Shown in pieces: positions 26,686 to 59,880 of a DNA stretch of 64,000 nucleotides; the stretch's first letter is position 1; the number at the start of each line of letters is the position of its first letter. Source of the stretch: Gammaproteobacteria bacterium (lineage in GTDB: Bacteria > Pseudomonadota > Gammaproteobacteria > JASBUN01). Made by a program: the position numbers and the translations under genes. The notes under the pieces were generated by a model, which was given only the letters and a program-made list of their open reading frames with translations, had not been told where the DNA came from and made no database searches. The stretch is taken from contig JASBUN010000041.1 of NCBI GenBank assembly GCA_030147845.1, forward strand, positions 34,630-98,629, given 5' to 3'.

Positions 26686-29600
26686 TTATTCAAGAGCGAC
26701 GCGGTGCAGGCGGCGGCAGGCGGTGAACAGTAATACGGTCTCGATCACCCGCTCGGGCCACAATCGAGCCGCACCCTGCGCGTACCAGCGCAGTTGCTCG
26801 ATATAGTTGCCCGCCAGTTGGTCCAAGTTTTCCGGTTGTGCGCCGGCGTGAGTCTTGTAGTCGACTATCAATATTCGTGTCGGGCTCACTATGACGCGGT
26901 CGATGACTCCGTGAACCAGATCTTGACCGGCATAATATTGAATCGCCACTTCGTTGTAGGCCCATTGCGCTGCGCTGCCGAACACGGATGCAAGTGCGGG
27001 ATCGTGCACGACTTGCCACGCTTCATCCCACCAACTTTGAAGGCGCTGGTCATCATTGTTGAGCGCAAGTTCGCGCGCCAACGCGCGCAAGGCATCGTCG
27101 CGCTTGGGCGCCGGCGCGACGCTTAGCCATTCCAACAAGCGATGGATGCCAAGCCCGCGTTGGCGGCCATCCTCGCCGGGCAGCGTGGTTGCATCTACCA
27201 TCGAAGTACTGCGGCTGGGGGCAATCTCGCGACGCCGGTTCAAGGTAGCTAGCGGCTGGCGCAGCCTCGCATCAAGGACCGGACCGCTAACCGCGGCCGT
27301 GGCTGCATCGGTTGCGCAACATTCCGGCGGTTGGACCGGTGAACGCAGTGTCAGCGTGGCGCCCTCTGGCTGCGCGATGGGCTCGAGTTGGCTGCGGATT
27401 TTTCCATACCAGCCTAAATCTTTGCCGCGCGCCGGTTCGCTACCGCTAATGATCAGATACTGGCGGGCGCGTGAAAGCGCCACATAAAGCAGATTGGCCT
27501 CTTCGCGGCGGGCGGCATCATCGTCGTGCTGTAACATGCGTGTGCTGATGGTATCCCGCTGCGCGCTCTTCGGCGCCAGGTAAAAGCTCGTTGGGCGTTC
27601 CGAGTCGGCCGGCCATTGCACCACCGTTCGCAGTGCCTCGCTGCGCGCCGTCGACGCGGTCGTGTCGGCCAAGAACACCACTGGCGCTTCCAGACCCTTC
27701 GACGCATGTATCGTCAGTATGCGAACGCGGTCGTCGGCACTGCCGGCGGGCGGCGCATCCGGCGCCTCGAGCCGATGGCGGCGCAGCTCCTGTAAACGAT
27801 GTATAAAGTGCGCGAGACTCGGGTAACGACCGCTATCGACTTCCAATGCCAGTTCCAGAAAGCGGGTTAAGTTCGAACGCGCGCGGGCGCGCAAGCCCTG
27901 CGGGAAAGCCGCTTCATAGCGACGAAGGACGTTGCCTTCGCTATAGATGCGGTCCAGCAGGTCGTGTACGGGTATCTGTCCGGCCCATGTACTCCAACGC
28001 TTCAGCAGGCGTTGTGCGCGCGCGAGTGTAGCGGTCGCCCCGGTGCTGTCGGCGAACTGTGCCAGGCGTTCATACCAGTATGCGCCACCGCCGTCCGCGG
28101 CCAAGCGTATGAGGTCTTCGTCGCTGACCGCGAACACGGGCGAACGTAGTACTTGTGCCAGCGCCAAATTGTTGTAGGGCATGACCAATATGGTTAGCAG
28201 GGCTTCCATATCCTGAATTTCCAGGCTGCTCAGCAGCGTACCGCGCTCGGCGCCGAGATAGGGGATATTCGCCTCGCGCAACGCCCTTTCGATGGCGTGG
28301 GCGTGCGTGCGCTTGCGCAGTAAAATAGAAATGTCACTGTATTGCACTGCCCGGTAGCCGTCACCGTCGACGATCGGTAGCGGTTGGCGAATCATTGCCT
28401 CAATGCGTGCGGCGATGCTGCGGCCTTCTTCGAAGTGACGCGCATCTTCCTCCACAATCCGCGCTGCATGCAGTGGGTTACGCAGTTCGGTTGCAGCGTG
28501 CGTGTTGGCGGCAGTGTCCATTGGTGGTGGCGCCGATAGTGGCAGCACATCGACCTGCCCCCAGAACGCGCGCCGGTGTGTATCGTGGGGCTTGAAGTTC
28601 GGTAAGTAGTCATTGAGTTCGCCACCGCCAAATACAGCATTGATGCAGTCGATGACGGCCGGCGAGGAACGCCAGGAGTGGTCCAGCGAATAAGATTGTG
28701 CGTCTAGATTCTGGCCCAGCCAGTCGGCGGCGCTGTCCATCAGACGAGGCTCGGCACGGCGGAATCGGTAGATCGACTGTTTTACGTCACCGACCAAAAA
28801 GACACTGCGCTGTCGTTCATTGTCGCCGGCGGCAAGCTCTTGCAGCAACGGCAGTAGCAGGCGCCATTGCGTGGGGTTCGTGTCTTGGAATTCATCGACC
28901 AGGAAATGATCGATGCGCTGGTCCAGTTTGTACTGGATCCAATGGGCGTTGTCGGCGTTATGTAGGAGTTCGTATGTTTTCCATTCCAGATCGTCGAAAT
29001 CGAGCCAGCGTTGCTCGCGCTTGATGCGTTGGTAGTGTTCCAGTAACCGCGTTCCGGCCCGGAACCATGCGCACGACAACCGCCACGTGTGGCGACGCCG
29101 GAGTTGGTCAAACAACTGTTCGAGGCGCTCGCAGAGCGAGTCGTGCAGTGCCAGGAATCGCTGTTGCGCCTCCGCGCCCATATTTTTTTCTTGGGTTTTA
29201 CTAGCCTTGCGTACGCGGCGTGTACCGCTGCCGGTAAAAAAGACTTGGCGCAGCAATGCCCAGCGTTGCTCGTCGTCGAGCTGGGTGTCCAGTGCCTGGG
29301 TCAAGAGACCGGCGTGCCCAAGGTTGCTGGCGGTTGCGTGTCGCTGCAGCAGCGCCGCAAAGTGGCTCACGTCGGCGCTCATTGCGGCTACAAACGCCGC
29401 GCCCGGATCGGCGTCGGGATCGATGTCGAGTAACCGTAACAGCGACTGTTCGGCATATGCCGGCGCGTCAGCCTGCCCCTCTGTGAATGCCCACCAGTCG
29501 CTACGGTGATGCAGAAAGGCGGATAGCGCCGCGTGCGTATTGTGTAAGCCGCCGCACTGGTCAAACAGTGTTTCCAGCGCGCGTGCGGTGGCGCCGTCTT

Positions 29601-30114
29601 GAGCCGCTGTGGCTTCGTTATAGAGTGCATCCCAGGCCTCGTTTTGGAGTAGCCCGGCGGTGTCGAGCAACTCGAACCCCGGCGGTACCGAGGCCTCCAG
29701 TGGAAAACGTTGTAGCGTGTCCTGGCAGAAGGCATGGAAGGTCGTGGCGCGCACCGGGTGTTCGCTAAACAGTAGTTCTTCGTAGAGGCGACGCGCCCGG
29801 GCCCGGGTTTCGGCGTTAGCGGTGGCGCCCAGCTCAGCCAGTGCCTGATCGAGTTGGCGTTCGGATAGGTGCACATAGCTGAGCAAGCGTTGGTTTAGCC
29901 GTGTCAGTATTTCCGCAGCCGCTTTACGCGTGAATGTGACGGCGAGAATACCGTCCGGGGGCGCGCCGGCGAGCAAAAGTCGCACCAGACGCGTGACCAA
30001 CAACCAAGTCTTGCCGGTGCCCGCGGAGGCCATGACGGTAGCGTTGTTAGATGGCGTGGCGGCCTGCAGGCTGGCGGACATGTCGATTCGGGTTCGAGTA
30101 ACGGTATTGCGCAT
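26686..30114 (-). CDS. addA: UvrD/Rep-family helicase-nuclease, AddA-like
   Basis: Walker A ASAGTGKTWLL, VDEFQDT helicase motif II, and C-terminal PD-(D/E)XK element ILIVDYKTH. Confidence 0.85.
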   Translation of the reverse strand: MRNTVTRTRIDMSASLQAATPSNNATVMASAGTGKTWLLVTRLVRLLLAGAPPDGILAVTFTRKAAAEILTRLNQRLLSYVHLSERQLDQALAELGATANAETRARARRLYEELLFSEHPVRATTFHAFCQDTLQRFPLEASVPPGFELLDTAGLLQNEAWDALYNEATAAQDGATARALETLFDQCGGLHNTHAALSAFLHHRSDWWAFTEGQADAPAYAEQSLLRLLDIDPDADPGAAFVAAMSADVSHFAALLQRHATASNLGHAGLLTQALDTQLDDEQRWALLRQVFFTGSGTRRVRKASKTQEKNMGAEAQQRFLALHDSLCERLEQLFDQLRRRHTWRLSCAWFRAGTRLLEHYQRIKREQRWLDFDDLEWKTYELLHNADNAHWIQYKLDQRIDHFLVDEFQDTNPTQWRLLLPLLQELAAGDNERQRSVFLVGDVKQSIYRFRRAEPRLMDSAADWLGQNLDAQSYSLDHSWRSSPAVIDCINAVFGGGELNDYLPNFKPHDTHRRAFWGQVDVLPLSAPPPMDTAANTHAATELRNPLHAARIVEEDARHFEEGRSIAARIEAMIRQPLPIVDGDGYRAVQYSDISILLRKRTHAHAIERALREANIPYLGAERGTLLSSLEIQDMEALLTILVMPYNNLALAQVLRSPVFAVSDEDLIRLAADGGGAYWYERLAQFADSTGATATLARAQRLLKRWSTWAGQIPVHDLLDRIYSEGNVLRRYEAAFPQGLRARARSNLTRFLELALEVDSGRYPSLAHFIHRLQELRRHRLEAPDAPPAGSADDRVRILTIHASKGLEAPVVFLADTTASTARSEALRTVVQWPADSERPTSFYLAPKSAQRDTISTRMLQHDDDAARREEANLLYVALSRARQYLIISGSEPARGKDLGWYGKIRSQLEPIAQPEGATLTLRSPVQPPECCATDAATAAVSGPVLDARLRQPLATLNRRREIAPSRSTSMVDATTLPGEDGRQRGLGIHRLLEWLSVAPAPKRDDALRALARELALNNDDQRLQSWWDEAWQVVHDPALASVFGSAAQWAYNEVAIQYYAGQDLVHGVIDRVIVSPTRILIVDYKTHAGAQPENLDQLAGNYIEQLRWYAQGAARLWPERVIETVLLFTACRRLHRVALE

Positions 30115-30327
30115 TCTCCCAGAATCGATCTCTGTGAGCGAACTGTGGCCGAGTGTGGTGAATTGGTTTGTAGGCCGAGTCTGATATTGCTGTAGGGAAT
30201 GCCTGGATGGTGATGTGCGACAACGCCTCGTTGTATAGCTTATTTTTCTTCTAATATATTGAACTTATTATGGTTGTTTGGTTGACGGGCGATGCCGGCT
30301 GGCGCCCAGCAGCACTGATTTCACGTT

Positions 30328-30355
30328 TTGCAACACGCGTAAATACCCGTATAAA
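30328..30355 (+). promoter_or_regulatory. Candidate sigma70 promoter of small RNA candidate 1
   Basis: TTGCAA (30328-30333), 16-nt spacer, TATAAA (30350-30355). It has the same architecture as the promoter proposed at 30589-30616. Confidence 0.4.
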
Positions 30356-30361
30356 TAGCCT

Positions 30362-30496
30362 CTAATCGTGCACTTTGGTGCCGATTAGACCAGGGAAGGT
30401 GAACAGGGAGGGTAACAAGGACGAAGTGGCAAATGGAATTGCCGGGGGCAGGATCGCCCTGAGGGACGAAAAGGCGGCGTAATGCCGCCTTTTCTT
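30362..30496 (+). ncRNA. Candidate CsrB/Rsm-type (CsrA/RsmA-sequestering) small RNA 1
   Basis: No coding potential. Six A(N)GGA motifs fall in about 75 nt (GGA at 30394, 30407, 30419, 30435, 30451, 30464). Two sit in hairpin loops (GGCAA-ATGGAA-TTGCC; GGGC-AGGATC-GCCC). There is a 5' hairpin TCTAATCG...CGATTAGA, and the element ends in an intrinsic terminator. Confidence 0.5.
30473..30496 (+). terminator. Intrinsic terminator (AAAA upstream makes it potentially bidirectional)
   Basis: GGCGGC (30473-30478), loop GTAAT, GCCGCC (30484-30489), then TTTTCTT. Confidence 0.7.
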
Positions 30497-30554
30497 ATAC
30501 AGGCGGGGAAATTTGGGTGATTATGGGAGTGGTGTAGGCGAACTCCGAAAATTC

Positions 30555-30572
30555 TGTAGGCCAAATCCTACA
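30555..30572. promoter_or_regulatory. GacA/UvrY-box-like palindrome
   Basis: TGTAGG-CCAAAT-CCTACA is a perfect 6-N6-6 palindrome. It differs from the Pseudomonas GacA upstream activating sequence TGTAAG-N6-CTTACA by one symmetric position. It is centred about 60 nt upstream of the predicted start of small RNA 2. Extra TGTAGG half-sites lie at 30533-30538 and 30191-30196. Confidence 0.45.
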
Positions 30573-30588
30573 AAAAATATACGTCATG

Positions 30589-30616
30589 TGGACAGAGTTA
30601 CAATAATTGATATAAA
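30589..30616 (+). promoter_or_regulatory. Candidate sigma70 promoter of small RNA candidate 2
   Basis: TGGACA (30589-30594), 16-nt spacer, TATAAA (30611-30616). Confidence 0.35.
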
Positions 30617-30622
30617 ACAATA

Positions 30623-30841
30623 TCTAACCACGTTACATCGGTGCGAACGGCGGGCGTGAGAGTGTGAGGCTGATACTGCGGCTGATTGCGTCGGTCACGA
30701 AATCCGCTCACACTAGCCCTTGCTGGGCCATCATGGATGGCCTCAAGGACCACACCGGATGGAGGAGCCATACGGCTGTGCATTGGGCCGGGAGGGCTCA
30801 TAATGGACACAAAAGGCGGCCTGCGGGCCGCCTTTTCATTT
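30623..30841 (+). ncRNA. Candidate CsrB/Rsm-type small RNA 2
   Basis: Seven GGA motifs are concentrated in 30733-30808 (CATGGAT, CAAGGAC, CCGGATGGAGGAG, CGGGAGG, AATGGAC); five fit A(N)GGA. The 5' part is structured (GAGTGTGAG...CTCACAC). A strong terminator closes it. The track ORFs here (30664..31134, 30686..31258) are antisense to addB and implausible. Confidence 0.45.
30815..30841. terminator. Bidirectional intrinsic terminator (small RNA 2 on plus strand, addB on minus strand)
   Basis: GGCGGCC (30815-30821), loop TGCG, GGCCGCC (30826-30832). It is flanked by AAAA upstream and TTTTCATTT downstream, and lies 29 nt beyond the addB stop. Confidence 0.7.
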
Positions 30842-30869
30842 GCCTCCGAAAAACATCACGCGCGGCCGA

Positions 30870-33800
30870 TCACGGCGCCGCCTGTGCGGATTCGAGCCAC
30901 GCCTCGCGTCGGCAAAGACCCGACATCGGACAGTGTTTGCATACCTGTTCGTCACCCCAGGCCGGTAAGGCCGCGCCGGCGGCGGCTTCATCCAAAACCG
31001 ATGCCAGGCGCCGGCGCACGCGATCGCGCAGTTCGCTCAGTTCGGTTCCGTCCAGCATCGAGGCCGATTCAACGTGCTCGCCATCGAGCCGGACGTATTC
31101 CACCTGCGTCGTCGAACCGTGCAGTATGGCGTAGCTCGCCAACTGCACCGCTTCGCCTTGCATCACCATGTCCGCGTTCGGGGTGGCGCCGGTTTTATAA
31201 TCGATCACGGCATGTTGGCCGGAGCCGTTGGCGTCGACGCGGTCCAGGCGTCCTTTGAGTCGCCAAGTCGGCCCGATGGTTTGTTCACAGGCGCTTTCCA
31301 CCGCCACGACTGACCAGTGCCGCTGACGTTCGATCTGCCAGTCGATATAGGCGGGGATCAGGCTCAGCCAACGTTTGAGCCATCCTCTGTGCATGAAATT
31401 GTCTTCCAGATCCTTGGCGAATTGCGCATGCGCAATCGCCTGCAGGCAATCAATCGCGCGCGCGCGGTTTTCCGCCGTAAGTGGTTCTGAGAATGGTCCC
31501 GGCAGACCATCCACAGTGGCGTGAAATGCCTGCAGGCAGCGATGCACGCGCTGTCCGTAGTCGGACTTTTCCAGCACTTCGCGAATTTCATCTACCGGCT
31601 TGAGTTGCAAGCAGTCGGCGGCGAAAAACTGATATGGACAATCCACCAAACGTTGGTGGGCGCTTGCGGATACTGCGTGCGGCAATTTGTCGGCCGCAAC
31701 TTGTGGGCGCGGATACGGCATCGGATGCGGTAGTTCTGCTTCGTCAAATGTACATACATCGGTGTCCGATGCCGACAACAGGTGGGTCAATCCGGCATCA
31801 TCCAGACCGCAGCCGAAGGCGCTATTGTGAAAGGTTTCAAGCGCCTCCAGCCACGGCGAAACGACCACCTCGTCGCCGTCCTGCTGGCGGTGACAAGTGA
31901 TCAGAACTCGATTTGAGGAACTCAGGAGGCGACGAAAATGATAAAAGCGCTCGGTGAGGGTTTCATGCCAGCTCGGCAGTTTGAGTTCGCCACGTACGGC
32001 GTCGTTGAAATACGGTGAAGGCGTGCCGCTACCGGGCAGATGACTGATTTCGGCGCCGGCGATGATCAGCGCGTCGAAACGGCATAAATGACTTTGTTCT
32101 AACGTCAGGAGTTGTACCGCACTGTTGGCGGTATTGGGTCGGAAGCTCGCGCGTTCCAGCGCGCGTCCCAACCAACCGCGGAATTCGCTCCAGTTCATGC
32201 GCACCTGCCGTTGGTCGGTGGCCGCGCGTAGCTGCTGAAGTTGTTGCAGTACACGAAACCCAGCCGCGTCGGCGGCTAACGTGCGGCGCAGCTCGAGTGC
32301 GTCGAGGCTGAAATCGAGTGCGTCCAAATAACGTTGTGGTAAATGCGGCCGTCCGCCAAACAGGGCCTGTAACGGCGCCGCGGCGTGCGCCAAATGATCG
32401 AGTAATTGCGCGATGCGTGCGGTTGCCGGCGCCGACCACTTGAGCCTGCGCGCACGGAAGCGTAGATGTCGACGATAGCGGGCGAGGCCGCGGGCGACGT
32501 TCTCGTGTAGAACGATATCCCGCTCGAGGCGATAAACCGCGGCGCGAAAACCATCGGCATCGTCCAGTGGTAGCAGGAACGGTGATTTGAGCAGATCGAG
32601 CAGCGGTTGATGTGCGAAATCCTCTTCCACCGTTTGTAGCCAGCGCTCGATGACGGTCGCGGCACTGGTGGTGGATAACGCCCAGCCACCAGTATCGTCC
32701 AGCACGATCTCGGCGCGTTCGAGCAATGCCCGTACACGGCGAGCGAGGCGACGATCCTCGGTGACAATGCCGATGCTCGCCATGCCCTCGAGCAGCCAAC
32801 GGCGTACTTGTAGGTCGATCGCCCGCGCTTCCTGTTCGGCGTCCTCGGCGTGGAAGCTCATCAAACGGTTACGTGCCGGACTGTCGGCGCCGGTTCCCCG
32901 CCTGAAGTTTCGTGCGCGCTCTGATAACGGATTATCGCGGTATGCGTACGTGGCATCAATGAACAGCGATAGCGCGTCGGTCGACTTGGTCGCGTGCGGC
33001 GCGATGTGCAGCATGGCGGTAAGCCGCGTGAGCGCCGCATCAGGGTGGTAGTGATCGCTGCCGAACGCGCCGTGCAAAATTAGTTCGAGCTGGCCGCGCT
33101 TCAGCAATGCTTGTAACCAGGCGCATTCAGCGCTGGTGGCACGATACCATCCGAGCACGAATATGGTCTGATTCGTACGGATACTGTCGAGCGATTGGCG
33201 CAGCCGCAATATATAGGCGCTATTAGGGTCGATGCGTCCATGCGCATGTAACTGTTGGTGCCACGCGCGCCACAGCGTGTGTACCAGGGTTGCTTCGCGT
33301 CCCAGGTGGGCCGGTGTCGTTGCGCGAGTGCCGTAGCCGCGGCCGATTCGGCTGATGAATTCGTCGACATTGTCCGGCAGTTGAACATCGAAACGGGTAA
33401 GCTCATCGAAAAATTGCAATAGGCTTTCGCAGAGTCGCCACGGATCGGCGTCGCCGAACAGCGTACGATGTTGTTGTAGTGCCTCCATGAGAATCAGGTC
33501 GCGACCGACATTTTGGACGGCCGGCGTGTGGGCGATGCAGAGGGAATCAAGCCAGCCAGGCAAGGTGTCGATGCGCGGACCGAGCAAGGCGCTAAGGCCG
33601 CGATCAGCCGCACCACGCAGTAGCAACTCGCGTAGGCGCGGTGCGGACTGGGTGTCGGGCAACAAAACGACGACCTGGTCGAGATCGGGCAAGGCATCGG
33701 CGTGCCGGGTCAATATGCGTTCGGCGGCAAACGCTAGCGGGTCGCCGTCATAGGGCAGCAGATGGATGGGTTGCGACACGTGGTGCGACACGGTATTGAT

Positions 33801-33896
33801 TGCTATCCCGAACGGCCGGATTGCTTCGGCAGGGGCGCGGCGCACGGCGTATACCGGTGGTTTGACGCCGGATTTTGCGATGACAATGCAAGCCAT
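30870..33896 (-). CDS. addB: PD-(D/E)XK nuclease-family double-strand break repair protein, AddB-like
   Basis: About 1000 aa, upstream of the addA-like gene. C-terminal nuclease element AVIDYKTGA followed by the Cys cluster CKHCPMSGLC. Confidence 0.8.
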   Translation of the reverse strand: MACIVIAKSGVKPPVYAVRRAPAEAIRPFGIAINTVSHHVSQPIHLLPYDGDPLAFAAERILTRHADALPDLDQVVVLLPDTQSAPRLRELLLRGAADRGLSALLGPRIDTLPGWLDSLCIAHTPAVQNVGRDLILMEALQQHRTLFGDADPWRLCESLLQFFDELTRFDVQLPDNVDEFISRIGRGYGTRATTPAHLGREATLVHTLWRAWHQQLHAHGRIDPNSAYILRLRQSLDSIRTNQTIFVLGWYRATSAECAWLQALLKRGQLELILHGAFGSDHYHPDAALTRLTAMLHIAPHATKSTDALSLFIDATYAYRDNPLSERARNFRRGTGADSPARNRLMSFHAEDAEQEARAIDLQVRRWLLEGMASIGIVTEDRRLARRVRALLERAEIVLDDTGGWALSTTSAATVIERWLQTVEEDFAHQPLLDLLKSPFLLPLDDADGFRAAVYRLERDIVLHENVARGLARYRRHLRFRARRLKWSAPATARIAQLLDHLAHAAAPLQALFGGRPHLPQRYLDALDFSLDALELRRTLAADAAGFRVLQQLQQLRAATDQRQVRMNWSEFRGWLGRALERASFRPNTANSAVQLLTLEQSHLCRFDALIIAGAEISHLPGSGTPSPYFNDAVRGELKLPSWHETLTERFYHFRRLLSSSNRVLITCHRQQDGDEVVVSPWLEALETFHNSAFGCGLDDAGLTHLLSASDTDVCTFDEAELPHPMPYPRPQVAADKLPHAVSASAHQRLVDCPYQFFAADCLQLKPVDEIREVLEKSDYGQRVHRCLQAFHATVDGLPGPFSEPLTAENRARAIDCLQAIAHAQFAKDLEDNFMHRGWLKRWLSLIPAYIDWQIERQRHWSVVAVESACEQTIGPTWRLKGRLDRVDANGSGQHAVIDYKTGATPNADMVMQGEAVQLASYAILHGSTTQVEYVRLDGEHVESASMLDGTELSELRDRVRRRLASVLDEAAAGAALPAWGDEQVCKHCPMSGLCRREAWLESAQAAP

Positions 33897-33970: not shown

Positions 33971-34294
33971 TCAGCGTTCCAGGTATTGAAGTTTATCGGG
34001 CTTCCCGTCCCATTCCTCGGCGTCCGGCGGGGCATCCTTCTTCTCCGTGATGACCGGCCAGTCGCGGCATAACTCGGCATTTAATTCCGTCAAGTGCTGC
34101 TGCCCTTCCGGGACATCGTCTTCGGCGAATATGGCCTCGGCGGGACACTCGGGTTCGCACAAACTGCAGTCAATACACTCTTCGGGGTCGATAACTAAAA
34201 AATTCGGTCCCTCATGGAAGCAATCGACCGGGCAGACTTCGACACAATCGGTGTATTTGCATTTGATGCAATTTTCAGTAACGACGTAGGTCAT
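33971..34294 (-). CDS. fdxA: 7Fe ferredoxin
   Basis: [51 protein letters not shown]. Confidence 0.95.
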
Positions 34295-34433: not shown

Positions 34434-35453
34434 CTAATTGGCCAGATCCGTGCGTGCGATGACCCGGTTGCGGCCCTGCTCCTTGGCTTCGTAGAGCGCT
34501 TTATCCGCCAACTCGATCAACATCTGTACACCGCTGTCGTTCGATGGTGTCAGCGTTGCTATTCCGGCGCTGATGGTCAGGTGGGTATCGACCGTGGAGC
34601 CTTTGTGCGGAATTTCGAGCGCCCGCACCGCCGCACGCACGCGTTCAGCGACCAAGGTAGCGCCGTGCGGATCCGTATTCGGCAAGACGACGGCAAACTC
34701 TTCACCGCCGTAGCGCGCTACCAAATCCGCCGGCCGACTGGCCGTTTTGTCGAGGATGCGAGCGACGCGTTGCAGGCAGTCGTCACCACCCTGGTGACCG
34801 TAGGTGTCATTGAACGGCTTGAAAAAATCAATATCGATGAGAATAAGCGAAAGCGTGCCGTGCTCACGTTCAATGCGCTTCCATTCAGCGTCCAGCGTGG
34901 TATCGAACTGTCGACGATTCGCAATTCCGGTCAGCCCATCCAGTGACGACAACCGCTGTAGTTCGGCGTTGGTTTTTTCGAGTTGACGTTGCATCTCGCG
35001 CAGAGCCATGAATGCGGCGTCGCGTTCGAGCTGCATAAGGTAATTTTTTGTGTGCGCGCGAATGCGGGCGATCAATTCGATTTTATTCGGGAGTTTTACC
35101 AGATAGTCGTTGGCGCCATTGGAAAAGGCGTCGCTCTTAATAACCGGATCCTCCTTGGAGGATAAAACGATGATCGGAATATCGCGGGTGACGTTATTGG
35201 CGCGGAAAAAGCGTACCAGCGTCATGCCGTCGATGTCGGGCATGATCAGATCCTGCAGAATGATAGTGGCATCGAGTTCGGATGCAGTTTGTATGGCGGC
35301 GGAAGGATCGGCGCAATAATGAAACTCCATATCGCTTTCGCCTTGCAACATGCGGCGGATGCCTTCGGCTACCATGGCTTGGTCGTCGACCAGGAGGACT
35401 TTTATGATTTTGTCATTGGAAATACTGGCGCTGAGCTCGTTATTATTGGTCAT
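34434..35453 (-). CDS. wspR: Response-regulator diguanylate cyclase (REC-GGDEF), WspR-like
   Basis: REC domain (VLLVDDQ...LIMPDIDG), RPAD I-site, and RYGGEEFAV. It is the last gene of the Wsp-order operon. The start at 35453 (MTNNNELS) overlaps the cheB-like stop. Confidence 0.85.
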   Translation of the reverse strand: MTNNNELSASISNDKIIKVLLVDDQAMVAEGIRRMLQGESDMEFHYCADPSAAIQTASELDATIILQDLIMPDIDGMTLVRFFRANNVTRDIPIIVLSSKEDPVIKSDAFSNGANDYLVKLPNKIELIARIRAHTKNYLMQLERDAAFMALREMQRQLEKTNAELQRLSSLDGLTGIANRRQFDTTLDAEWKRIEREHGTLSLILIDIDFFKPFNDTYGHQGGDDCLQRVARILDKTASRPADLVARYGGEEFAVVLPNTDPHGATLVAERVRAAVRALEIPHKGSTVDTHLTISAGIATLTPSNDSGVQMLIELADKALYEAKEQGRNRVIARTDLAN

Positions 35454-36501
35454 GGTGTTGCTGCCCCCTGGCTGGGTGTTCCTTCCCATTCCGGGTCAGT
35501 TCCCGGGTCAGTGCGTGGGCGATATCGCCGACTGGTAGAACGTCGGCTGCGGCGTTCAGTTCTACGGCGGCTTTTGGCATCCCATACACAGCGCAACTGT
35601 TTTTATCCTGAGCGATGGTATACATACCCCGGCGTTTTAATGCAAGCAGGCCGCTGGCGCCGTCGCGTCCCATACCCGTGAGTAATACGCCGATGGCGTC
35701 GTCCTGCCAGTAGGTGGCGACGCTGTCGAAAAAGACGTCTACCGACGGCCGATAGATATGCGCGGCGGGTTCCGCGGTGTAATGGAGACGGCCGTTTTTT
35801 CTTAGGATCAAGTGATCACTTGTGCCCGCGATGAGCACTGTTCCAGCCTGGGGGCGATCGCCGTCTTCGGCCAGACGCACGTTAAGTGGCGATTGATCAT
35901 TCAGCCACTGTGCCAGGCCGGGCGCGAAATGGCTATCGACATGCTGAATGATGACGATGCCGGCGCTGAAGTCGGCGGGCAGTGCACTTAGAATTTGTGC
36001 CAATGAGCCGGGGCCGCCGGTCGACGAGCCGATGGCGATTAGCGACGTGCTGAATTGTCCGCGTTGCGCCGGCAGGGCTGGCGCTGGCTGTGGTGCAGGC
36101 GTATGTCGCGAGATCAAATGACTGATGGAATCGAGCTTTTTCTTTAGACTCTGAATCCCATCGCGCGTGCGTGCGCCGCCAAGCGTAGGCGTGCTGATCG
36201 CGTCCAGCGCGCCGGCAGCCATGGCTTCGAACACCTTGGCGGAATTGCCGGTGACCGACGCGGTTACCACCAAGATTGCGCACGGTGTGGCGTCCATAAT
36301 GCGTTTGCTGGCTTCGATGCCGTCCATGTGCGGCATGATCAGATCCATGAGTATGGCGTCAGGGCGGTCGGCGGCGCATTGTTCGACCGCTTGAACGCCG
36401 TCGGCCGCGGTCCAGGCGATGGTGTGTTCCGTGTATTCCAAAATCACGTGGGTGAGCGCTGACACTACCATGCTGACATCATTGACGATCGCGATTCTCA
36501 T
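35443..36501 (-). CDS. wspF: Protein-glutamate methylesterase CheB (WspF-like)
   Basis: REC domain plus the methylesterase motif GSSTGGPGSL. Confidence 0.9.
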   Translation of the reverse strand: MRIAIVNDVSMVVSALTHVILEYTEHTIAWTAADGVQAVEQCAADRPDAILMDLIMPHMDGIEASKRIMDATPCAILVVTASVTGNSAKVFEAMAAGALDAISTPTLGGARTRDGIQSLKKKLDSISHLISRHTPAPQPAPALPAQRGQFSTSLIAIGSSTGGPGSLAQILSALPADFSAGIVIIQHVDSHFAPGLAQWLNDQSPLNVRLAEDGDRPQAGTVLIAGTSDHLILRKNGRLHYTAEPAAHIYRPSVDVFFDSVATYWQDDAIGVLLTGMGRDGASGLLALKRRGMYTIAQDKNSCAVYGMPKAAVELNAAADVLPVGDIAHALTRELTRNGKEHPARGQQHHDQ

Positions 36502-39203
36502 GCCGTCGCCGCTCCGATCAGGTCGTTGACCGAATTAATCAGCGTTTCGTCATGGAAACTGCCTTTGGCCAGGTAGTAATCCGCGCCTGCGTCAAGGCCG
36601 CGATCGCGGTCCTCCGGTCGATCTTTGTAGGACACGATCATCACCGGCAGCGCGCGCAACACCGGGTCTTTTTTAATCATGGTGACGAGCTCGATGCCGT
36701 TTAGACGCGGCATATCGATGTCGCTGATAATAAGGTCGTAATCGCCGGTGCGTACCGTGTTCCATCCATCCATTCCATCCACCGCCACATCCACCTCGTA
36801 ACCCTTGGATTGCAGCAATTTGCGTTCAACTTCGCGCACCGTTAGCGAATCGTCGACCACCAGAATGCGCTTGGTCGTACGCTTGTCTGCATTACTTGAG
36901 CGTTTGACTTTGTGCAGCCGCTTCCCTGAGACCAGGACGTCGATAGAACGCGCTAAATCGTCCACATCGAAGATCAATACCGGTTCGCCTTCCTCGGTTA
37001 TGGCTGCTGCGCTGATATCTTGAATCTTGCCTAAGCGTGGATCGATCGTGTGTACCGCTAGATCGCGGCGGCCGATGAACTGTTCTACGACGAGGCCATA
37101 ACTTGCGTTACGATCGCCGATCACCACCACCGGCAGGCTCATGTCTGAGTTTTCGCCATTCTTACGCCCGAGAACCTGAGTCGCATCCACCAAGCCGATG
37201 TGCTGATCTCCGTAGGTAATATATTGGCGGTCTTCCAGCGTCTCGATTTGACCACGTTCTATTTTTAGGATGTGCTCGATGCGCGCCAGTGGGAATGCGT
37301 AGAGCTCGCCGGCGATGCGTACGATGAGGCTGCGAATCACCGACAGAGTGAGTGGTAGCTGCAGATTGACGCACATCCCCTGGCCTGGATTAGTGGTCGA
37401 TCGAATTTGGCCACGCATTTCCTGCACCGTGCTGTGGACCACGTCCAAGCCGACACCGCGACCGGAAACTTCCGTGACCTCATCTCGGGTCGAAAACGCC
37501 GGCAGAAACAAGAAGTCGAGGAGTTCGGATTCCGATAAATCGGCCGCCATCGCCGCGCTGACCATTTCACGTTCGACGATCCGCTTGCGTAGTCCATCCA
37601 AATCGACCCCGCGTCCATCATCACTGATGACGATAGAAAGGAGCCCTGCGCTGTGAAGCGCCTCCAGGCGAATCGAACCGACCGCAGGCTTGCCGGCCTG
37701 CGCACGTTGTTCGGGCGATTCGATGCCGTGGTCAACGGCATTGCGCAGTAGATGGTTGAGTGGTGCTTCGATTTTTTCGAGGATATCGCGGTCGACCTGC
37801 GTATCCAGACCAGCAATATGCAACTCTACTTGTTTGCCAAGCGAGCGTGCGATATCACGGACCATGCGTTTGAAGCCTTGTACGGCGTCTCCGAATGGCC
37901 GCATACGGCTGGTGATGACCTCATGATTCAGGCGGCTGGTCAGGTTGCTGATACGGCGATCAAAGTCTTCCAGCTCCGAAATTCGCCCCGCCAGCGACTG
38001 ACGACACTCGTCCGCTTTAGACTGTGTTGTCTGTAGCATGTTTTTGGCGAGATCGTTCAGTGTGTTTTCGTCCAAGGCATTATGAAGGCGATCGAGATGT
38101 GCAAGCAATTCGGTGTGACGACGTTTTAAAATCAACAGGGAGTCGGCATATGAGCGCAGCCAGCCTGCCGAGACACGAAATTCGCCGGCGTAACCCACCA
38201 GGCGATTAACACGCTCAGCGCTGATTCTTAGTACGCGTTCGCCGCCCTTGGCGGCGGGAACTTGGGCAGCGGCGGGGTCGGGCTCGCGTCGCTGTACGTC
38301 CGGCTTGGCTTGTGGAGGCGATTTGTCGCCACGCAATATGCCTCCTAATTCGGCCGTAAGGGCGGCGATGGCCGGCTGATTCTGTTTACGCCACTGATTA
38401 TGTTGATCGTTCGGTAATTGAGCGATGCTTGCCAGCAGATCGACACCACGCAACAGTACGTCAATGTCATCGCCGAGCAATTGGATGCGTGCTTCCTGTG
38501 CAGCGACAAAACAGTCTTCCATGCTGTGTGCGACGTCAACCGCGCTGGCGACGTCCACTAAGCGCGCCGCGCCCTTGATCGAGTGCGCCGCGCGCATCAA
38601 TGCCTCCAGCAATTTGGCCTGGTCGGCGCTGCTCTCCAACTCCAAAAGCCCTTGTGTCAACGCGCCGGTATGGGTTTCCACTTCGATACGAAATAGATCG
38701 AGCATGTCGACATCGTGATCGGCGTGGGCGGCGGGGCGCGGTACGTTATCGGCGCACTGTGTATTGCGCACGGCGTTTGAGGCCGCCGGCTTGGAATTGT
38801 CGTCGCGTACTCTCGCCAACTGCGCGACTAATTGTTGTAACTCATGCTGTTCATCAACCGATTGCTGCTCGTGTTGATCGGCGCTCTGCTTCGCGATGCG
38901 CGACAGCATGTCGACGCCGGTAAGTAAGGTATCGACGTGTTCGGCACGCAAAATCAAGCGTCCCGCTTGTGCCGCGACGAAACAATCCTCCATGACATGA
39001 GCGATTTCCACCGCGCTAGGCACGTCAACTAAACGCGCAGCGCCTTTGATAGAATGAGCGGCGCGCATGAGAGATTCCAAAAGCGACGTATCGTTGGGTC
39101 GACTTTCCAGCGCCAGTAGTCCTTCGCTGAGCGCCGAGGCATGCGTGTCCGTTTCCAGACGGAACAGCTCAAGCATGGTATCGTCGTTGAATTGGCTGGA
39201 CAT
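36498..39203 (-). CDS. wspE: Hybrid CheA histidine kinase with two HPt domains, a CheW-like domain and a C-terminal REC (WspE-like)
   Basis: Two copies of LMRAAHSIKGAARLVDV (His codons at 39056-39054 and 38585-38583). HATPase motif GRGVGLDVV. C-terminal ILVVDDSLTVRE...DIDMPRLNG. Confidence 0.9.
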   Translation of the reverse strand: MSSQFNDDTMLELFRLETDTHASALSEGLLALESRPNDTSLLESLMRAAHSIKGAARLVDVPSAVEIAHVMEDCFVAAQAGRLILRAEHVDTLLTGVDMLSRIAKQSADQHEQQSVDEQHELQQLVAQLARVRDDNSKPAASNAVRNTQCADNVPRPAAHADHDVDMLDLFRIEVETHTGALTQGLLELESSADQAKLLEALMRAAHSIKGAARLVDVASAVDVAHSMEDCFVAAQEARIQLLGDDIDVLLRGVDLLASIAQLPNDQHNQWRKQNQPAIAALTAELGGILRGDKSPPQAKPDVQRREPDPAAAQVPAAKGGERVLRISAERVNRLVGYAGEFRVSAGWLRSYADSLLILKRRHTELLAHLDRLHNALDENTLNDLAKNMLQTTQSKADECRQSLAGRISELEDFDRRISNLTSRLNHEVITSRMRPFGDAVQGFKRMVRDIARSLGKQVELHIAGLDTQVDRDILEKIEAPLNHLLRNAVDHGIESPEQRAQAGKPAVGSIRLEALHSAGLLSIVISDDGRGVDLDGLRKRIVEREMVSAAMAADLSESELLDFLFLPAFSTRDEVTEVSGRGVGLDVVHSTVQEMRGQIRSTTNPGQGMCVNLQLPLTLSVIRSLIVRIAGELYAFPLARIEHILKIERGQIETLEDRQYITYGDQHIGLVDATQVLGRKNGENSDMSLPVVVIGDRNASYGLVVEQFIGRRDLAVHTIDPRLGKIQDISAAAITEEGEPVLIFDVDDLARSIDVLVSGKRLHKVKRSSNADKRTTKRILVVDDSLTVREVERKLLQSKGYEVDVAVDGMDGWNTVRTGDYDLIISDIDMPRLNGIELVTMIKKDPVLRALPVMIVSYKDRPEDRDRGLDAGADYYLAKGSFHDETLINSVNDLIGAATA

Positions 39204-39205
39204 GG

Positions 39206-39880
39206 TTATACCAACTTTCTGCTCAACGCATGAAATACAAGTTCATCGTCCAGGCAGCCGACGTGCACATCGTCGACATTGATAATTCCCTTAATGAACG
39301 TCGAAGCCGCTTTCGCCACGGTCGCCGGTGCGACTTCAATCTGATCCGCATGAAAGCGGAAAATATTCTTCACTTCACTGACGGGAAATACGTAACGTTC
39401 GCCGTTGCGTTCGGTTACCAGGATACGCTCGTGCGTTTTTATGCCTTCCATGGCGTGCGCCGAGCCTTTATCTAGACCGATAAGATGACCCAGAGAAACG
39501 CATAAGTGAAGTTCCCCTCGAAGATTGATTAGACCCTTTAGCACACGATCGTTGGTGTGCGGTATGCTATGTATCAGGCGCATATCAGCGATTTCACAAA
39601 TCAATCGATTGGGCAGACATAGCCATTCGTTGCCGATTCGAAACATCAGCGCGGATTCGAGTGTGTCGGTCGATGACGCGATCGGTGTGCTGAGGTTTTG
39701 CCCCCATTCATCGAGATAGCCGTCAGGCGCCGCACGGTCGAGCAGGTTACGTCCTGCCGACGAGTAGATGTTACAGTTGTGACAGTGGATGACCTGATCG
39801 AGCTTAGGACAGCGCGGACGCTCGTTGCCCCAAATGCCGATACGATTCCAGCAGTCTATTAGTTTGATATTGGCGCTCAT
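39206..39880 (-). CDS. wspD: CheW-domain coupling protein (WspD-like)
   Basis: The CheW-like region (FRIGNEWLCLP...INLRGEL) follows a Cys-rich N-terminal extension. The position matches wspD. Confidence 0.8.
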   Translation of the reverse strand: MSANIKLIDCWNRIGIWGNERPRCPKLDQVIHCHNCNIYSSAGRNLLDRAAPDGYLDEWGQNLSTPIASSTDTLESALMFRIGNEWLCLPNRLICEIADMRLIHSIPHTNDRVLKGLINLRGELHLCVSLGHLIGLDKGSAHAMEGIKTHERILVTERNGERYVFPVSEVKNIFRFHADQIEVAPATVAKAASTFIKGIINVDDVHVGCLDDELVFHALSRKLV

Positions 39881-39907
39881 CGGCTTTACTGTGGCTTATC
39901 GCACGAC

Positions 39908-41176
39908 TCAGTTCTTCGCGCGTTCGGCTCTCCTTCTAAGCAGCGCGGCGTTTTTGGCATCCCCGCGTTGTTCAACGATCAGCGCGAGGTGGACCAGCGA
40001 CTCGTAGTGTTGAGGGTCGAGGTAAACCGCCTTGCGCAAGTGCTCCTCGGCGGCAGTCGTCTCTCCTAGGGACTCTTCGATTAGGCCCAATAAAAAATAG
40101 CTGTCCCCACATGGGCCATCGCTACTAATCTGTTCCTGACAAATCGCTCTGGCGGCCTGCAAATCACCCTTATCCGCTAGCTGCCGCGCACGCTGCAATG
40201 GCTTGATCTTCGCCGCTGTTGCGTCGGCCGCCGGCGCCGTCGCTGTGATGCCCGTAGGCGCAGGCCTGACTTGCGTCGGTGCGTTTATGCGCTGATGCGG
40301 CGGCCGAGCGCTTGCATCGCGCCGCCGTATCGATGCCTTTTGTGCAGGACGATCGGCCGCATTCTTGCTTGCCTCAGGCAGCACCTTTCTGAACGAGAAG
40401 GCGCTCGCCGGCCCCAAGCTGGTAAATAGTGTCTGCGGAATGACGCCGCACTCGGCATGCCCCAAGAACAGAACTCCGTCGTCTTTTAATACGCGGTGCA
40501 AAGTCTTGTGTGCACGCTGCTTGGTCTGCTCGTCAAAATAGATGAGCAGGTTGCGACAAAAGATGATGTCGTAGTTATGTCCCGGTATACCGGTGGTATT
40601 GGACAGTATATTGCCTTGGCGGAAATAAACTTGATCGCGAATTTGCTTGGCGATTATGTAGCGATCGTGTTCGCGCTGGAAGTAACGCTCACGAATAGTC
40701 GGGTCCTGTTTGCCGCGAAACGAGTGCATTCCGTAGGAGCCGCGTAGTGCGTATTCAAGCGCTTGTTGACTGACGTCGATGGCATCGATTTTAAACTGCG
40801 CGGCGCGTAAACCGGCCTCAAACAGCGTGATGGCAATAGAGTAGGGTTCTTCGCCAGTTGAACATGGCAGGCTGAGTATGTGCAGCGGCTCTTGCTCGGT
40901 AATACGCCCAAAACGTTGATGCACGTTTTCTTTTAGGGTTACAAACGGCTTCGAATCACGAAAAAACCAAGTCTCGGGCACCACAACCGCTTCAATAAGC
41001 TGCTTAAGTTCACCTGGCGATGTTTGCAGATGATCGGCATATTCTTCCAATCGTTCAATGCGGCATACGGCCATACGCTGATGCGCGGCACTGTCGATTG
41101 CGGACGTGCCGACCGATTGCGCGTGTAGTCCGATGTGTTCCTTCAGCAGCTGAGCGATGCGGTCAAGAGTGTTCAT
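39908..41176 (-). CDS. wspC: CheR methyltransferase with C-terminal TPR (WspC-like)
   Basis: ETWFFRD, SLPCSTGEEPYSIAI and FCRNLLIYF motifs, with a TPR-like tail. Confidence 0.9.
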   Translation of the reverse strand: MNTLDRIAQLLKEHIGLHAQSVGTSAIDSAAHQRMAVCRIERLEEYADHLQTSPGELKQLIEAVVVPETWFFRDSKPFVTLKENVHQRFGRITEQEPLHILSLPCSTGEEPYSIAITLFEAGLRAAQFKIDAIDVSQQALEYALRGSYGMHSFRGKQDPTIRERYFQREHDRYIIAKQIRDQVYFRQGNILSNTTGIPGHNYDIIFCRNLLIYFDEQTKQRAHKTLHRVLKDDGVLFLGHAECGVIPQTLFTSLGPASAFSFRKVLPEASKNAADRPAQKASIRRRDASARPPHQRINAPTQVRPAPTGITATAPAADATAAKIKPLQRARQLADKGDLQAARAICQEQISSDGPCGDSYFLLGLIEESLGETTAAEEHLRKAVYLDPQHYESLVHLALIVEQRGDAKNAALLRRRAERAKN

Positions 41177-41711
41177 CGTTTACCACTGCCGGGGCGATCG
41201 ACACATGTGCGTCAATTGCGCATCTGGATGTGCTGGCGGAAGTTGGCGCAGGCGCGAGTTGGTCCGACTGAAACAGTCGCGCAAGCACCGAGTCCGGAAG
41301 CATGCGATTGTGATCGACTAGCTGAATGAGCCCATCGGCGTCGCTGCAGATACCTTCGAGAAAAGGGGCGGCTGCGACCGTGACTCCCGACGGGACTAAT
41401 TCGTCCTCGCGTCGATGTATGGTTCCATTTACCTGCTCGGCGATCAGGCCAAGGACGTGCGATGTAGCGGAAGCGGCTGTATGGCGAACCAAAATAATGC
41501 GCGTACTCATGCGCGTCAGGCTGGGGCGCTGTTCGAACAGCTGGCATAGATCGATTACCGGAACCGGCGTGCCGCGGTAACTGAAAATGCCGGCGACATA
41601 GGCATCCGATAACGGTAGCTGCTTCATGCGCACCACCGGCGTTATCTCGACAACCGCGTCTGTCCGCATTGCGTAACGTTCTTCGCCTATTGTGAAAGTT
41701 ACCAGTAGCAT
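41163..41711 (-). CDS. wspB: CheW coupling protein (WspB-like)
   Basis: LLVTFTIGEERYAM...IFSYRGTPVPVIDL is the CheW fold pattern. Confidence 0.85.
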   Translation of the reverse strand: MLLVTFTIGEERYAMRTDAVVEITPVVRMKQLPLSDAYVAGIFSYRGTPVPVIDLCQLFEQRPSLTRMSTRIILVRHTAASATSHVLGLIAEQVNGTIHRREDELVPSGVTVAAAPFLEGICSDADGLIQLVDHNRMLPDSVLARLFQSDQLAPAPTSASTSRCAIDAHVSIAPAVVNDEHS

Positions 41712-41723
41712 TGATCGGCGCGG

Positions 41724-48286: not shown

Positions 48287-48578
48287 TAGTTGAGGCTCGA
48301 TCTTACAGTAAGTGCCAGTCTTCAACTGGCCGTGTTCGACCCGTTCCCGTCATTCCGGCGAATGCCGGAGTCCAGGCAGCCGCAAGGAAACGCGGGTCTT
48401 GGAACGATCCTAAGCAGACGGTTAGTCGTGTAAACTGTCCCCAGAATTCCTCCAGGTATTCTGTTGACCGAAAAACCGGGCTGCTTTACACGGATAATGA
48501 CAAACAAACTGCGGTTACTTAAGGCAAGACTGATGAAGCCTGTAGTGGCCGTTCTACCGATCAAAGGAGGTAAACGCC

Positions 48579-51464: not shown

Positions 51465-51600
51465 AGTCTGTCCAAGAATACATTCTTTTCATAAGGATTT
51501 GTGAAGACCATCGGCATGGAATGAAGGTTTATGGGTTGACCGTTTAGGGCAATGCGTAACTACCTTGCACTTTAACGAATATATTTAGATTTTGATTTTA

Positions 51601-54600: not shown

Positions 54601-54681
54601 GAAGACAAGCTTGGAGAGCTTGCGCAATCATTAAGAAAGCGTTTCCCGCGTAAATCCGTCCTACCGAAAAATAATTCGTGA
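51601..54681 (+). CDS. Mrr-like PD-(D/E)XK nuclease domain + P-loop NTPase + large C-terminal helical region (STAND/Avs-like architecture)
   Basis: N-terminus FENLCHGLFSAIW...GVDVFG...GVQCKG follows the Mrr catalytic-domain pattern (D...QxK). Walker A GEPGSGKS and Walker B ILLFIDDAH. About 650 further residues carry no recognised motif. ATG 51601 is preferred to TTG 51592. Confidence 0.75.
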   Translation: MDDLNKQIPPPKSWMDFENLCHGLFSAIWSDPYAQKNGRSGQPQHGVDVFGSKNQEYGVYDGVQCKGKNANYGSQADIEEIEQEIAKAEKFSPDLRHWIYATTAPVDSKLQEAAREISKARAAKNQFTVSVFGWEQIEFLLCKHKEVLRAFYPELGFDPNAFIEELRKQLQSEISDLTCFLSSATTKEEQSRSIVGDPVWVPVKFGQGRGLGPALMGRSMSASDAISCPQLPEVSGVIADLSRAYASRIVGEPGSGKSLSAFQAMRHFASAGWQIYKLVDPRRQDINIPDKSNGSKILLFIDDAHIIDESRLKLLEEKTGPDLYVLSTHNSEDGRTSFRNAIAIDSSRAVTVIANALMRDPHRTLGEVSKVDKDVGEKMMDIGLEDRISDARERANCPWQFCFILGGGWRRASELADAARHAKADIILAGLACRQLISRDEPLEIEVALKLLSCAGIDEKSVNNSIDWLVSQRLLLSREDLRTPHQRFSAIVLGKILQGQDLPGRDTIGKLLQHMLRDESYSLAGKRMLLHELRFQGNYGRWAYLVPADTLGGDLAKCWQASSAEERLHACYFLSELDCYYNGWPEALFKDHEQVIADWISAPQTPVGWGLARLIHGIGNQHREYISSIIEKADPLCIARVVNNVDVDSTAHLGELVGALGYVRNTDWHREFASKLDRDALLNLPGHWPDGEDLWAFAKLCQALDGVDESLGLDLAAKFIPVAQKAYDRDPVEAFHFLHDMNMSVLRIYDPLGIYVGKLGPRNRHRQIARQMFKEINVQKLAYQISETRLRDMQSAAGLLSMLHNVSPAKYEKVIDGIDWNCIAETIGHHWDNLPHEAEVFLGVCYGAEPSRHKLDGLILDNLERIRLFPPRIAIVSPDAAIRHVEAGKEIRIAQHDHVDWTFGPVVLALFDERKPERLESAVQSAEATASKTFSQRNHSWFKDAYEYINILNKVAPKSLERILDGVDVSGASEGWADSLKKGGGPAKTVAFLIARSLKREDKLGELAQSLRKRFPRKSVLPKNNS

Positions 54682-57998: not shown

Positions 57999-58003
57999 GC
58001 TCG

Positions 58004-59864: not shown

Positions 59865-59880
59865 CCGATACCCGAAATGC

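Follow-up and report, generated by a model that had tools for sequence, protein, structure and literature searches.

A candidate Csr/Rsm-class small RNA gene, one of a conserved tandem pair, in the addB-addA spacer of a gammaproteobacterium

The addB and addA genes of a gammaproteobacterium (GTDB lineage Bacteria; Pseudomonadota; Gammaproteobacteria; JASBUN01) are separated by a spacer of 755 nt, located at positions 30115-30869 of a 64,000-nucleotide stretch of DNA. This stretch, here called the window, is the whole of the DNA analysed and corresponds to positions 34,630 to 98,629 of the forward strand of contig JASBUN010000041.1 (assembly GCA_030147845.1). Both add genes are encoded on the minus strand, and the spacer between them holds two plus-strand units, termed RNA 1 and RNA 2, the second of which (30533-30841) is the main subject of this analysis. 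The product of addB (30870..33896, minus strand, 1008 aa) was recognized by the NCBIfam model addB_alphas with 186 bits and by PDDEXK_1, and that of addA (26686..30114, minus strand, 1142 aa) by addA_alphas with 631 bits; RNA 2 is convergent with addB and RNA 1 is divergent from addA. Sequence features and comparative analysis indicate that the region 30533-30841 is probably a complete gene for a small RNA (sRNA) of the Csr/Rsm class, which would sequester CsrA/RsmA, and that it represents the addB-proximal member of a conserved tandem pair.

The unit ends in an Rsm-like core of about 120 nt (30720..30841, plus strand), formed by three GGA-bearing stem-loops plus a terminator, whose predicted fold has an energy of -55.8 kcal/mol and a z-score of -3.8. 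The first stem-loop (30725-30743) carries an AUGGA sequence at the loop edge and is followed by a single-stranded AAGGA at about 30745-30749, the second (30755-30775) displays an AGGAG loop, and the third (30777-30809) a GGGAG loop, with an additional, partly exposed AUGGA (30803-30807) in the 3' strand of its outer stem. Seven GGA motifs lie within 88 nt (at 30735, 30747, 30757, 30761, 30764, 30791, and 30805), with a GGA:TCC ratio of 7:1. An earlier reading of this DNA made from the letters alone (hereafter the sequence-only reading) had also counted seven, five of them as A(N)GGA, a figure given here as five or six. Exposure is predicted for the motifs at 30747, 30764, and 30791 (mean unpaired probability 0.7-1.0) and, in part, for those at 30735, 30757, and 30805. 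The density of GGA is not discriminating alone, because it is matched elsewhere in this G+C-rich DNA, nine other 150-nt segments of the 64 kb holding eight or more GGA as compared with seven in RNA 2.

The core closes with an intrinsic terminator (30811..30841), as the sequence-only reading had proposed, composed of a hairpin at 30811-30836, AAAAGGCGGCC-TGCG-GGCCGCCTTTT, followed by CATTT, and situated 34 nt past the addB stop codon. It has an 11-bp G+C-rich stem, a 4-nt loop and a T-rich tail, and its reverse strand also scores as a terminator. A simple scan with strict rules missed the hairpin and reported no plus-strand promoter or terminator; for the hairpin, the probable reason is that part of the T run is taken up by the extended stem. 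The terminator stem (AGGCGGCC/GGCCGCCT) is invariant in nine RNA 2 orthologues despite an AddB identity of about 55%, which is unusual for a terminator stem.

The host is phylogenetically isolated. The best AddA identity was 55% in a scan of 185,579 species genomes and likewise 55% in Joint Genome Institute (JGI) metagenomes, and the best match in a collection of 5.8 billion proteins reached 57%. Since same-species contigs from Logan (L081 and L082) are identical across both RNAs and the next AddA/AddB proteins are 55-57% identical, no close relatives were usable for covariation. Searches with blastn-short and nhmmer, using both RNA units against 90 loci, gave no matches; the RNAs are too diverged for sequence search, and thus models based on structure and motifs were needed.

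Contigs were fetched for the eight nearest AddB proteins (about 55% identical), and orthologous units were identified in these eight distant relatives, in each case within the addB-addA spacer and with the strand orientation seen in the window. All follow one layout, in which a half-degenerate box is separated by 4 nt from a full palindrome and is followed by an AT-rich patch, a weak promoter, and a GGA-rich RNA with its terminator, and the length from the first box to the terminator is 295-314 nt in nine of nine lineages. Tandem GGA-rich RNAs, each with its own terminator, occur in six lineages (L091/92, L093, L094, L095, L099, and L100), a single RNA is present in the spacers of L096 and L097, and the tandem arrangement is shared by at least seven deep lineages. 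The last 120 nt or so of the units align well, with GGA motifs at fixed positions in recognizable contexts: CAnGGAyG, AGGGA, the loop of the penultimate hairpin (GGGCC-GGGAu-GGCCC), and a single-stranded GGA shortly before the terminator. Among the single-stranded positions, those of the GGA motifs are the best conserved in the orthologues, and they are located in loops.

A covariance model, R2, was built from the eight relatives with the window sequence excluded. Its top match in the 64 kb was RNA 2 itself (30720-30841, 59 bits, E 1.2e-14), RNA 1 scored 52.8 bits, and the only other significant match beyond both RNAs, with 17.1 bits, was the reverse strand of the RNA 2 terminator. Among the relatives, R2 found two matches per spacer in six, all antisense to the add genes. 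When 23 R2 matches were aligned, the helices were 89.6% paired, compared with at most 55% when the partners were slid, and 13 pairs had changed on both sides, although this alignment was fitted to R2 itself, which favours the structure. The penultimate hairpin and the terminator of RNA 2 covary. A motif descriptor drawn up once the data had been seen, which asked for a hairpin with GGA in its loop, a single-stranded GGA and a terminator, matched only RNA 1 and RNA 2 in the window, where shuffles led to an expectation of 0.07, and 10 of its 13 matches in 962 kb of the relatives were adjacent to addA. The orthologous units in the eight relatives, together with a model made without the window, support the proposal of the sequence-only reading that two tandem Csr/Rsm-like sRNA genes occur here.

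The upstream region of RNA 2 contains two 18-nt boxes at 30533-30572, where two TGTAGG motifs stand 22 nt apart. Box A (30533..30550, plus strand; TGTAGG-CGAACT-CCGAAA, TGTAGGCGAACTCCGAAA) has a conserved left half-site and a degenerate right half; its TGTAG and the residues G15/A16 are invariant in seven lineages (alignment A4), and L099 and L100 carry the same box. Box B (30555..30572; TGTAGG-CCAAAT-CCTACA) is a putative GacA/UvrY-type dimer site. Its description as a perfect palindrome is accurate for the arms, which are 6 nt each and perfectly complementary, but not for the 6-nt spacer, which is asymmetric. As had been noticed from the sequence, Box B stands one symmetric change (A>G / T>C) apart from TGTAAG-N6-CTTACA, the consensus of the Pseudomonas GacA box (PMC3171408). 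A search for further TGTAGG-N6-CCTACA sites in the 64 kb gave Box B as the single exact match, and none appeared in 100 dinucleotide shuffles. The arrangement TGTAGG-N16-TGTAGG, with an expectation of about 0.05 in the window when one mismatch is allowed, matched exactly twice, at 30169 and 30533, both on the plus strand and both in the spacer.

The addB-proximal units of the relatives carry in every case a box A of the form TGTAG[G/T]-N6-CyGAAw, 4 nt, and a box B, TGTAGG-N6-CCTACA. The boxes have kept their arms over nine lineages, while nearly every lineage has 6-nt spacers of its own. In L094 both arms of box B have switched jointly to cGTAAG-N6-CTTACg, which is the canonical Pseudomonas-type core, and L100 carries a hybrid, TGTAAG-N6-CCTACA. 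The box sequences grade into the canonical GacA box in L094, L044, L073, and L022. Exact matches to the relaxed pattern GTARG-N6-CYTAC number 16 in 100 loci, and nearly all of them precede one of these RNAs. Arms that are conserved or change together while the spacers vary point to a dyad-symmetric protein-binding site, and the joint switch to the canonical core in L094 ties the TGTAGG variant to the GacA/UvrY box. The comparison therefore supports the palindrome as part of a conserved upstream element of the GacA/UvrY-box type, to which binding of such a regulator is predicted.

Downstream of the boxes lies an AT-rich patch (30573..30625, plus strand) with a promoter-like site, TGGACA at 30589-30594, TG at 30608-30609 and TATAAA at 30611-30616, which has the best sigma-70 score of the RNA 2 unit (11.1) and an extended -10 TG. 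This strong site is found in this species only, the orthologues displaying at the same position poor sigma-70 matches with scores of 2-6. In ten of ten units the AT content peaks 20-50 nt after box B, and L093 and L100 have part of the patch in common. A search for the integration host factor (IHF) consensus in the AT-rich linker gave three matches versus 0.7 expected, a number equalled in 9 of 200 shuffles and not significant. The patch might be either a second, distal promoter, a DNA-bending site, or an accessory or second-regulator site.

A second candidate promoter is located nearer to the core (30686..30714, plus strand), with a -35 sequence TTGCGT (30686-30691), a 17-nt spacer and a -10 sequence CACACT (30709-30714), and predicts a start at about 30721. 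In nine of nine lineages a TTGCnT or TTGAnT -35, followed after 16-17 nt by a -10-like hexamer, occurs 124-138 nt past box B and 9-19 nt ahead of the first conserved GGA; examples are TTGCGT-16-CACACT in L093 and TTGCTT-16-CACACT in L100. A pairwise footprint of L093 and L100 showed as conserved blocks the boxes, part of the AT-rich patch, the proximal promoter, and the RNA. Since the proximal promoter is positionally conserved in nine lineages and the stretch preceding it is not conserved, the sequence comparison favours transcription that begins near 30721 and gives an RNA of about 120 nt. With this start, the boxes of RNA 2 are centred near -179 and -157; those of RNA 1, relative to its own predicted start at about 30363, lie near -185 and -163.

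The sequence-only reading had placed the promoter at TGGACA-16-TATAAA and predicted a transcript of roughly 220 nt. The sequence is indeed present at 30589-30616, but its role as the promoter of such a transcript is probably wrong, as it is strong only in this species and the proximal promoter is conserved in nine lineages. The corresponding alternative, possible but on balance doubtful, is an RNA of about 218 nt transcribed from TGGACA-16-TGaTATAAA with a start at about 30623, box B serving as a class-I-type activator site at about -60; it would include a structured, GGA-free 5' domain ahead of the Rsm-like domain, and it may coexist with the short form. The distal promoter is near consensus (5/6, 16-nt spacer, extended TG, 5/6) and outscores every other site of the unit, it has the -10 sequence and the spacer length of the RNA 1 promoter, the 218-nt fold reaches -95 kcal/mol with a z-score of -3.86, and all units have kept an AT-rich patch here. 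Against the long form stand the poor promoter matches of the orthologues and a geometry that would differ from those of RNA 1 and csrB. Moreover, the would-be 5' domain is conserved only in length (134-153 nt), and its divergence between L093 and L100 is similar in extent to that of the untranscribed linker of unit 1. The idea that a 218-nt RNA has a conserved, structured 5' domain was considered and rejected, with no conservation of sequence and no significant fold (z about 0) in seven of nine lineages. The short RNA thus stays as the favoured product, and in this species the near-consensus distal promoter may give rise to a longer isoform of about 218 nt. The claim that both RNAs have the same promoter geometry survives under the revised promoter, with boxes at about -180 and -160 in both, but not under the original one, which would put the box at -60 in RNA 2 and at -185 in RNA 1.

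The sister unit, RNA 1 (30169..30497, plus strand), contains a double box (TGTAGGCCGAGTCTGATA-TTGC-TGTAGGGAATGCCTGGAT, 30169-30208, plus strand), a putative promoter TTGCAA-16-TATAAA (30328-30355, plus strand) with a predicted start at about 30363, and an RNA of about 135 nt (30363-30497, approximately) with six exposed GGAs. RNA 1 and RNA 2 have no detectable sequence similarity outside the boxes and the 3' module, and the two copies are old and diverged.

Beyond these orthologues, a GGA-rich RNA antisense to addA, in the region upstream of this gene, was found in about 20 of 80 related loci, whose hosts are uncultured Gammaproteobacteria plus Thioalkalivibrio. These addA-linked RNAs end in a terminator and show a marked strand bias (GGA:TCC 24:3, 22:4, and 28:5). 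Thirteen of them (from L004, L015, L019, L022, L038, L044, L050, L051, L056, L061, L067, L073, and L074) align over about 175 nt as four GGA-loop hairpins plus a terminator, with 90% pairing compared with about 30% when the partners are slid, and with nine compensatory pairs; further ones occur in L005, L008/9, L020, L024, and L064. A covariance model made from the thirteen, R1, retrieved six further members from 1 Mb of loci, with zero false positives, all of them antisense-upstream of addA. The sole R1 match in the window was RNA 1 (30370-30497, 23.5 bits, E 8e-5). RNA 2 was missed with default filters and, with filters off, gave 11.2 bits with an E of 0.006 in a 3-kb search; because R1 recognizes it so weakly, RNA 2 is placed in a separate sub-family, the one captured by R2.

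The addA-linked family and RNA 2 are alike in their antisense position upstream of addA, in their GacA-type boxes, and in a common 3' module formed by a GGA-loop hairpin, a single-stranded GGA, and the terminator. GacA-type boxes (TGTARG-N6-CYTACA, up to two mismatches) are 6.6-fold enriched in the 700 nt upstream of addA, and a perfect canonical box, TGTAAGTAATGTCTTACA, is present in L044 and L073. A distant member of the family scored 16 bits against the Rfam RsmY model, for gathering scores of 44-57, and the addA-linked family of about 175 nt, below every Rfam threshold, appears to be undescribed. Expanded addA-linked RNAs, of 300-400 nt and with 22-28 GGA, were observed in L005 (5445-5853), L024 (5507-5848), and L034 (5168-5550); in these, an internal unit of about 40 nt has been duplicated in tandem, which resembles CsrB-style expansion.

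The gene order around the pair is mutS, a Wsp-like chemosensory cluster, fdxA, addB, RNA 2, RNA 1, and addA. The fdxA ferredoxin gene (33971..34294, minus strand) was identified with the NCBIfam model FdxA_Protbact (168 bits, above the cutoff) and also adjoins addB in L091, L093-L096, L098, and L100. The Wsp-like cluster, which includes a GGDEF response regulator, occupies 34434-43967, and mutS 44194-46770. Directly beside mutS lies an integrative conjugative element (ICE) of the PFGI-1 type (46976-64000), with genes for a tyrosine integrase (46976-48286), an ICE ParB (56325-57998), STY4528-family, PFL_4669-family and ParM-like proteins, and RadC. No tRNA gene was detected within the 64-kb window.

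Kulkarni et al. (2006; PMC1488887) list five criteria for sRNAs that regulate CsrA, all of which apply at least partly to RNA 2. It has an intergenic location, in a 755-nt spacer without a credible open reading frame (ORF); as to a high concentration of AGGA/ARGGA motifs the agreement is partial, with seven GGA and no TCC in 88 nt and five or six A(N)GGA, but just two strict motifs and a GGA count per 150 nt that nine other segments of the 64 kb match; it ends in a Rho-independent terminator that is conserved in all orthologues; its GGAs occur in loops or unpaired regions, with an exposure below that of RNA 1; and it is preceded by a conserved UvrY/GacA-type sequence, the double box at 30533-30572, in nine lineages.

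The closest parallel in promoter architecture is found in csrB and csrC. At csrB of E. coli and Salmonella, UvrY occupies an inverted repeat of 18 nt whose centre is at -183, as determined by ChIP-exo (chromatin immunoprecipitation with exonuclease treatment) and footprinting, an extra TGTAGGAGA lies 5 bp downstream of the repeat, and an IHF site is located between the repeat and the promoter (PMC4682653). At csrC the right arm of the repeat is degenerate (TGTGAGACATTGCCGATA; Zere et al., 2015; PMC4682653), which resembles box 1 of RNA 1 (TGTAGGCCGAGTCTGATA). The RNA 2 unit shares with these genes a remote 18-nt repeat, a second half-site 4-5 bp on, an AT-rich or IHF stretch, a weak promoter, and a GGA-rich product ending in an intrinsic terminator. 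It differs from csrB in having the degenerate box first and the full palindrome second, in its addB-addA context, in its arms (TGTAGG/CCTACA, versus TGTGAG/CTTACA), in its size and number of sites (about 120 nt and seven, versus about 370 nt and about 18-22 in CsrB), and in the lack of sequence or Rfam similarity.

In its product, RNA 2 is more comparable to the Pseudomonas RsmZ and RsmY RNAs (RF00166 and RF00195; clan CL00106), which are likewise about 115-135 nt long, with short GGA-loop hairpins and single-stranded GGAs, one of them just before the terminator, and whose box, TGTAAG-N6-CTTACA, is one symmetric substitution away from Box B. Pseudomonas rsmZ is convergent with fdxA and located near mutS (PMC1488887, Table 1), and so are the sRNAs of the window, but here addB lies between fdxA and the RNAs, rpoS is absent from the locus, and the upstream element is a double box. 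The two loci may be positional orthologues. Tandem sponge-RNA genes are known as csrB1/2 in Colwellia, csrB1-3 in Photobacterium, csrB1/2 in Shewanella, and rsmX-1/2 in P. brassicacearum (PMC1488887, Table 1; PMC3171408; PMC7911923). These resemble the pair described here in lying head to tail within one intergenic region, every gene having a GacA/UvrY box and a terminator of its own, and are unlike it in that the present copies are diverged, deeply conserved, and split a pair of DNA-repair genes.

Several observations weigh against the assignment of RNA 2 to the Csr/Rsm class. It has no Rfam Csr/Rsm match even at E values up to 10; at the gathering score nothing was found in the window or in 10 related loci, the orthologues gave chance-level matches only, and RNA 1 reached 13.9 bits against PrrB_RsmZ in a permissive search, also at chance level. 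Only two of its motifs are strict AGGA/ARGGA, and three of seven GGAs are fully exposed, with a mean unpaired probability of 0.53-0.62 versus 0.85 for RNA 1. The genes csrA, gacA/uvrY, and gacS/barA were not found in the 64-kb window, and no NarL/FixJ-type regulator appeared among about 30 of its larger ORFs that were scanned. The TGTAGG arm has been documented only as an accessory half-site at csrB, not as a full site for a GacA homologue. The box patterns, like the motif descriptor, were designed after the data had been seen. Finally, the proximal -10, CACACT, is weak compared with the near-consensus distal site, which leaves the start site uncertain.

The missing Rfam match, the partial exposure of the GGAs, and the absence of the regulator and CsrA genes from the 64 kb would also fit a conserved, structured sRNA that does not act on CsrA but works by base-pairing or by binding another protein, its GGAs being incidental and the palindrome serving some other regulator. 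This is quite improbable, because the GGA loops are precisely the conserved feature, holding the most conserved single-stranded positions; the extreme GGA:TCC strand bias extends across the family, the box grades into the canonical GacA box, and the architecture equals that of csrB.

Still less probable is that the region gives no independent transcript, the hairpin at 30811-30836 being only the terminator or 3' untranslated region of addB and the remainder plain spacer. The hairpin is symmetric and close to the addB stop codon, and in about 12 relatives devoid of the spacer addB and addA abut or overlap; however, a covarying block of 120 nt, GGA loops and a double box have all been kept at about 55% AddB identity, and every one of these features is polar toward the plus strand. 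A minus-strand small protein of 70 aa (30598-30810) is scarcely credible, for although the ORF exists and a gene finder called a 61-aa version of it on contig L081, it was left uncalled on the identical contig L082, has no Pfam match, gives way to different longest antisense frames in the orthologues, where indels are not multiples of three, and is the kind of chance antisense ORF expected from the high G+C content. The transcript had been described as ORF-free; strictly, three mechanical ORFs overlap the region (30513-30659 and 30664-31134 on the plus strand, 30598-30810 on the minus strand), but none is credible, the two lying within the spacer having no Pfam match and the antisense frame being unconserved.

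Under the preferred interpretation, that of a CsrA-sequestering sRNA gene, a phosphorylated regulator of the GacA/UvrY type would bind the two 18-bp boxes, which are 22 bp apart and so placed as to present the same helix face, about 157 and 179 bp upstream of the weak sigma-70 promoter TTGCGT-17-CACACT. The intervening AT-rich patch probably helps in DNA bending; IHF bends DNA at csrB and rsmZ. A transcript that starts at about 30721 and stops at the terminator (30836-30841) would be an RNA of about 120 nt, whose GGAs in loops (AGGAG, GGGAG, and AUGGA) and in single-stranded linkers (AAGGA and AUGGA) are predicted to bind CsrA/RsmA dimers, and RNA 2 would thus titrate CsrA/RsmA away from messenger RNAs. 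Of the Gac-controlled sponge pair put forward by the sequence-only reading, the tandem Csr/Rsm-like genes and their GacA/UvrY-type box, conserved in eight relatives, are retained, whereas the promoter and transcript length have been revised.

Both sRNA terminators (30468-30494 and 30811-30836) are symmetric, with an A-run, a stem, and a T-run, and should consequently also stop minus-strand transcription of addB, in which case addA would need its own promoter, at about 30115-30170, beside the upstream element of RNA 1. With two bidirectional terminators and a Gac-activated transcription convergent to addB, it is conceivable, if unlikely, that the sRNA pair inserted between the two genes controls read-through from addB to addA or forces addA onto a promoter of its own. 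If true, this would couple the capacity for double-strand-break repair to the Gac/Rsm lifestyle switch.

On this interpretation, RNA 2 is an additional member, or sub-family, of a well-known system and reveals no new mechanism. No current Rfam model detects these RNAs in the genomes concerned, and the models R1, for the addA-linked family, and R2, for the RNA 2 sub-family, are usable; the TGTAGG-N6-CCTACA sequence in its 22-bp double-box arrangement could help in annotating these genomes and in predicting Gac regulons. The remote double box, AT-rich linker and weak promoter match those mapped by experiment at E. coli csrB, and the linkage to fdxA and mutS recalls rsmZ, which suggests one old promoter design, and perhaps one ancestral locus, for sponge RNAs. 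The Gac-Csr/Rsm circuit governs lifestyle switches, biofilm formation and secondary metabolism in Pseudomonas, Vibrio, Legionella, and the enterobacteria. The best-matching genomes in this analysis are labelled Thiohalomonadales, Ectothiorhodospiraceae, Chromatiales, or unclassified metagenome-assembled genomes, and the present interpretation, if true, would extend this circuit to a deep and largely uncultured group of Gammaproteobacteria.

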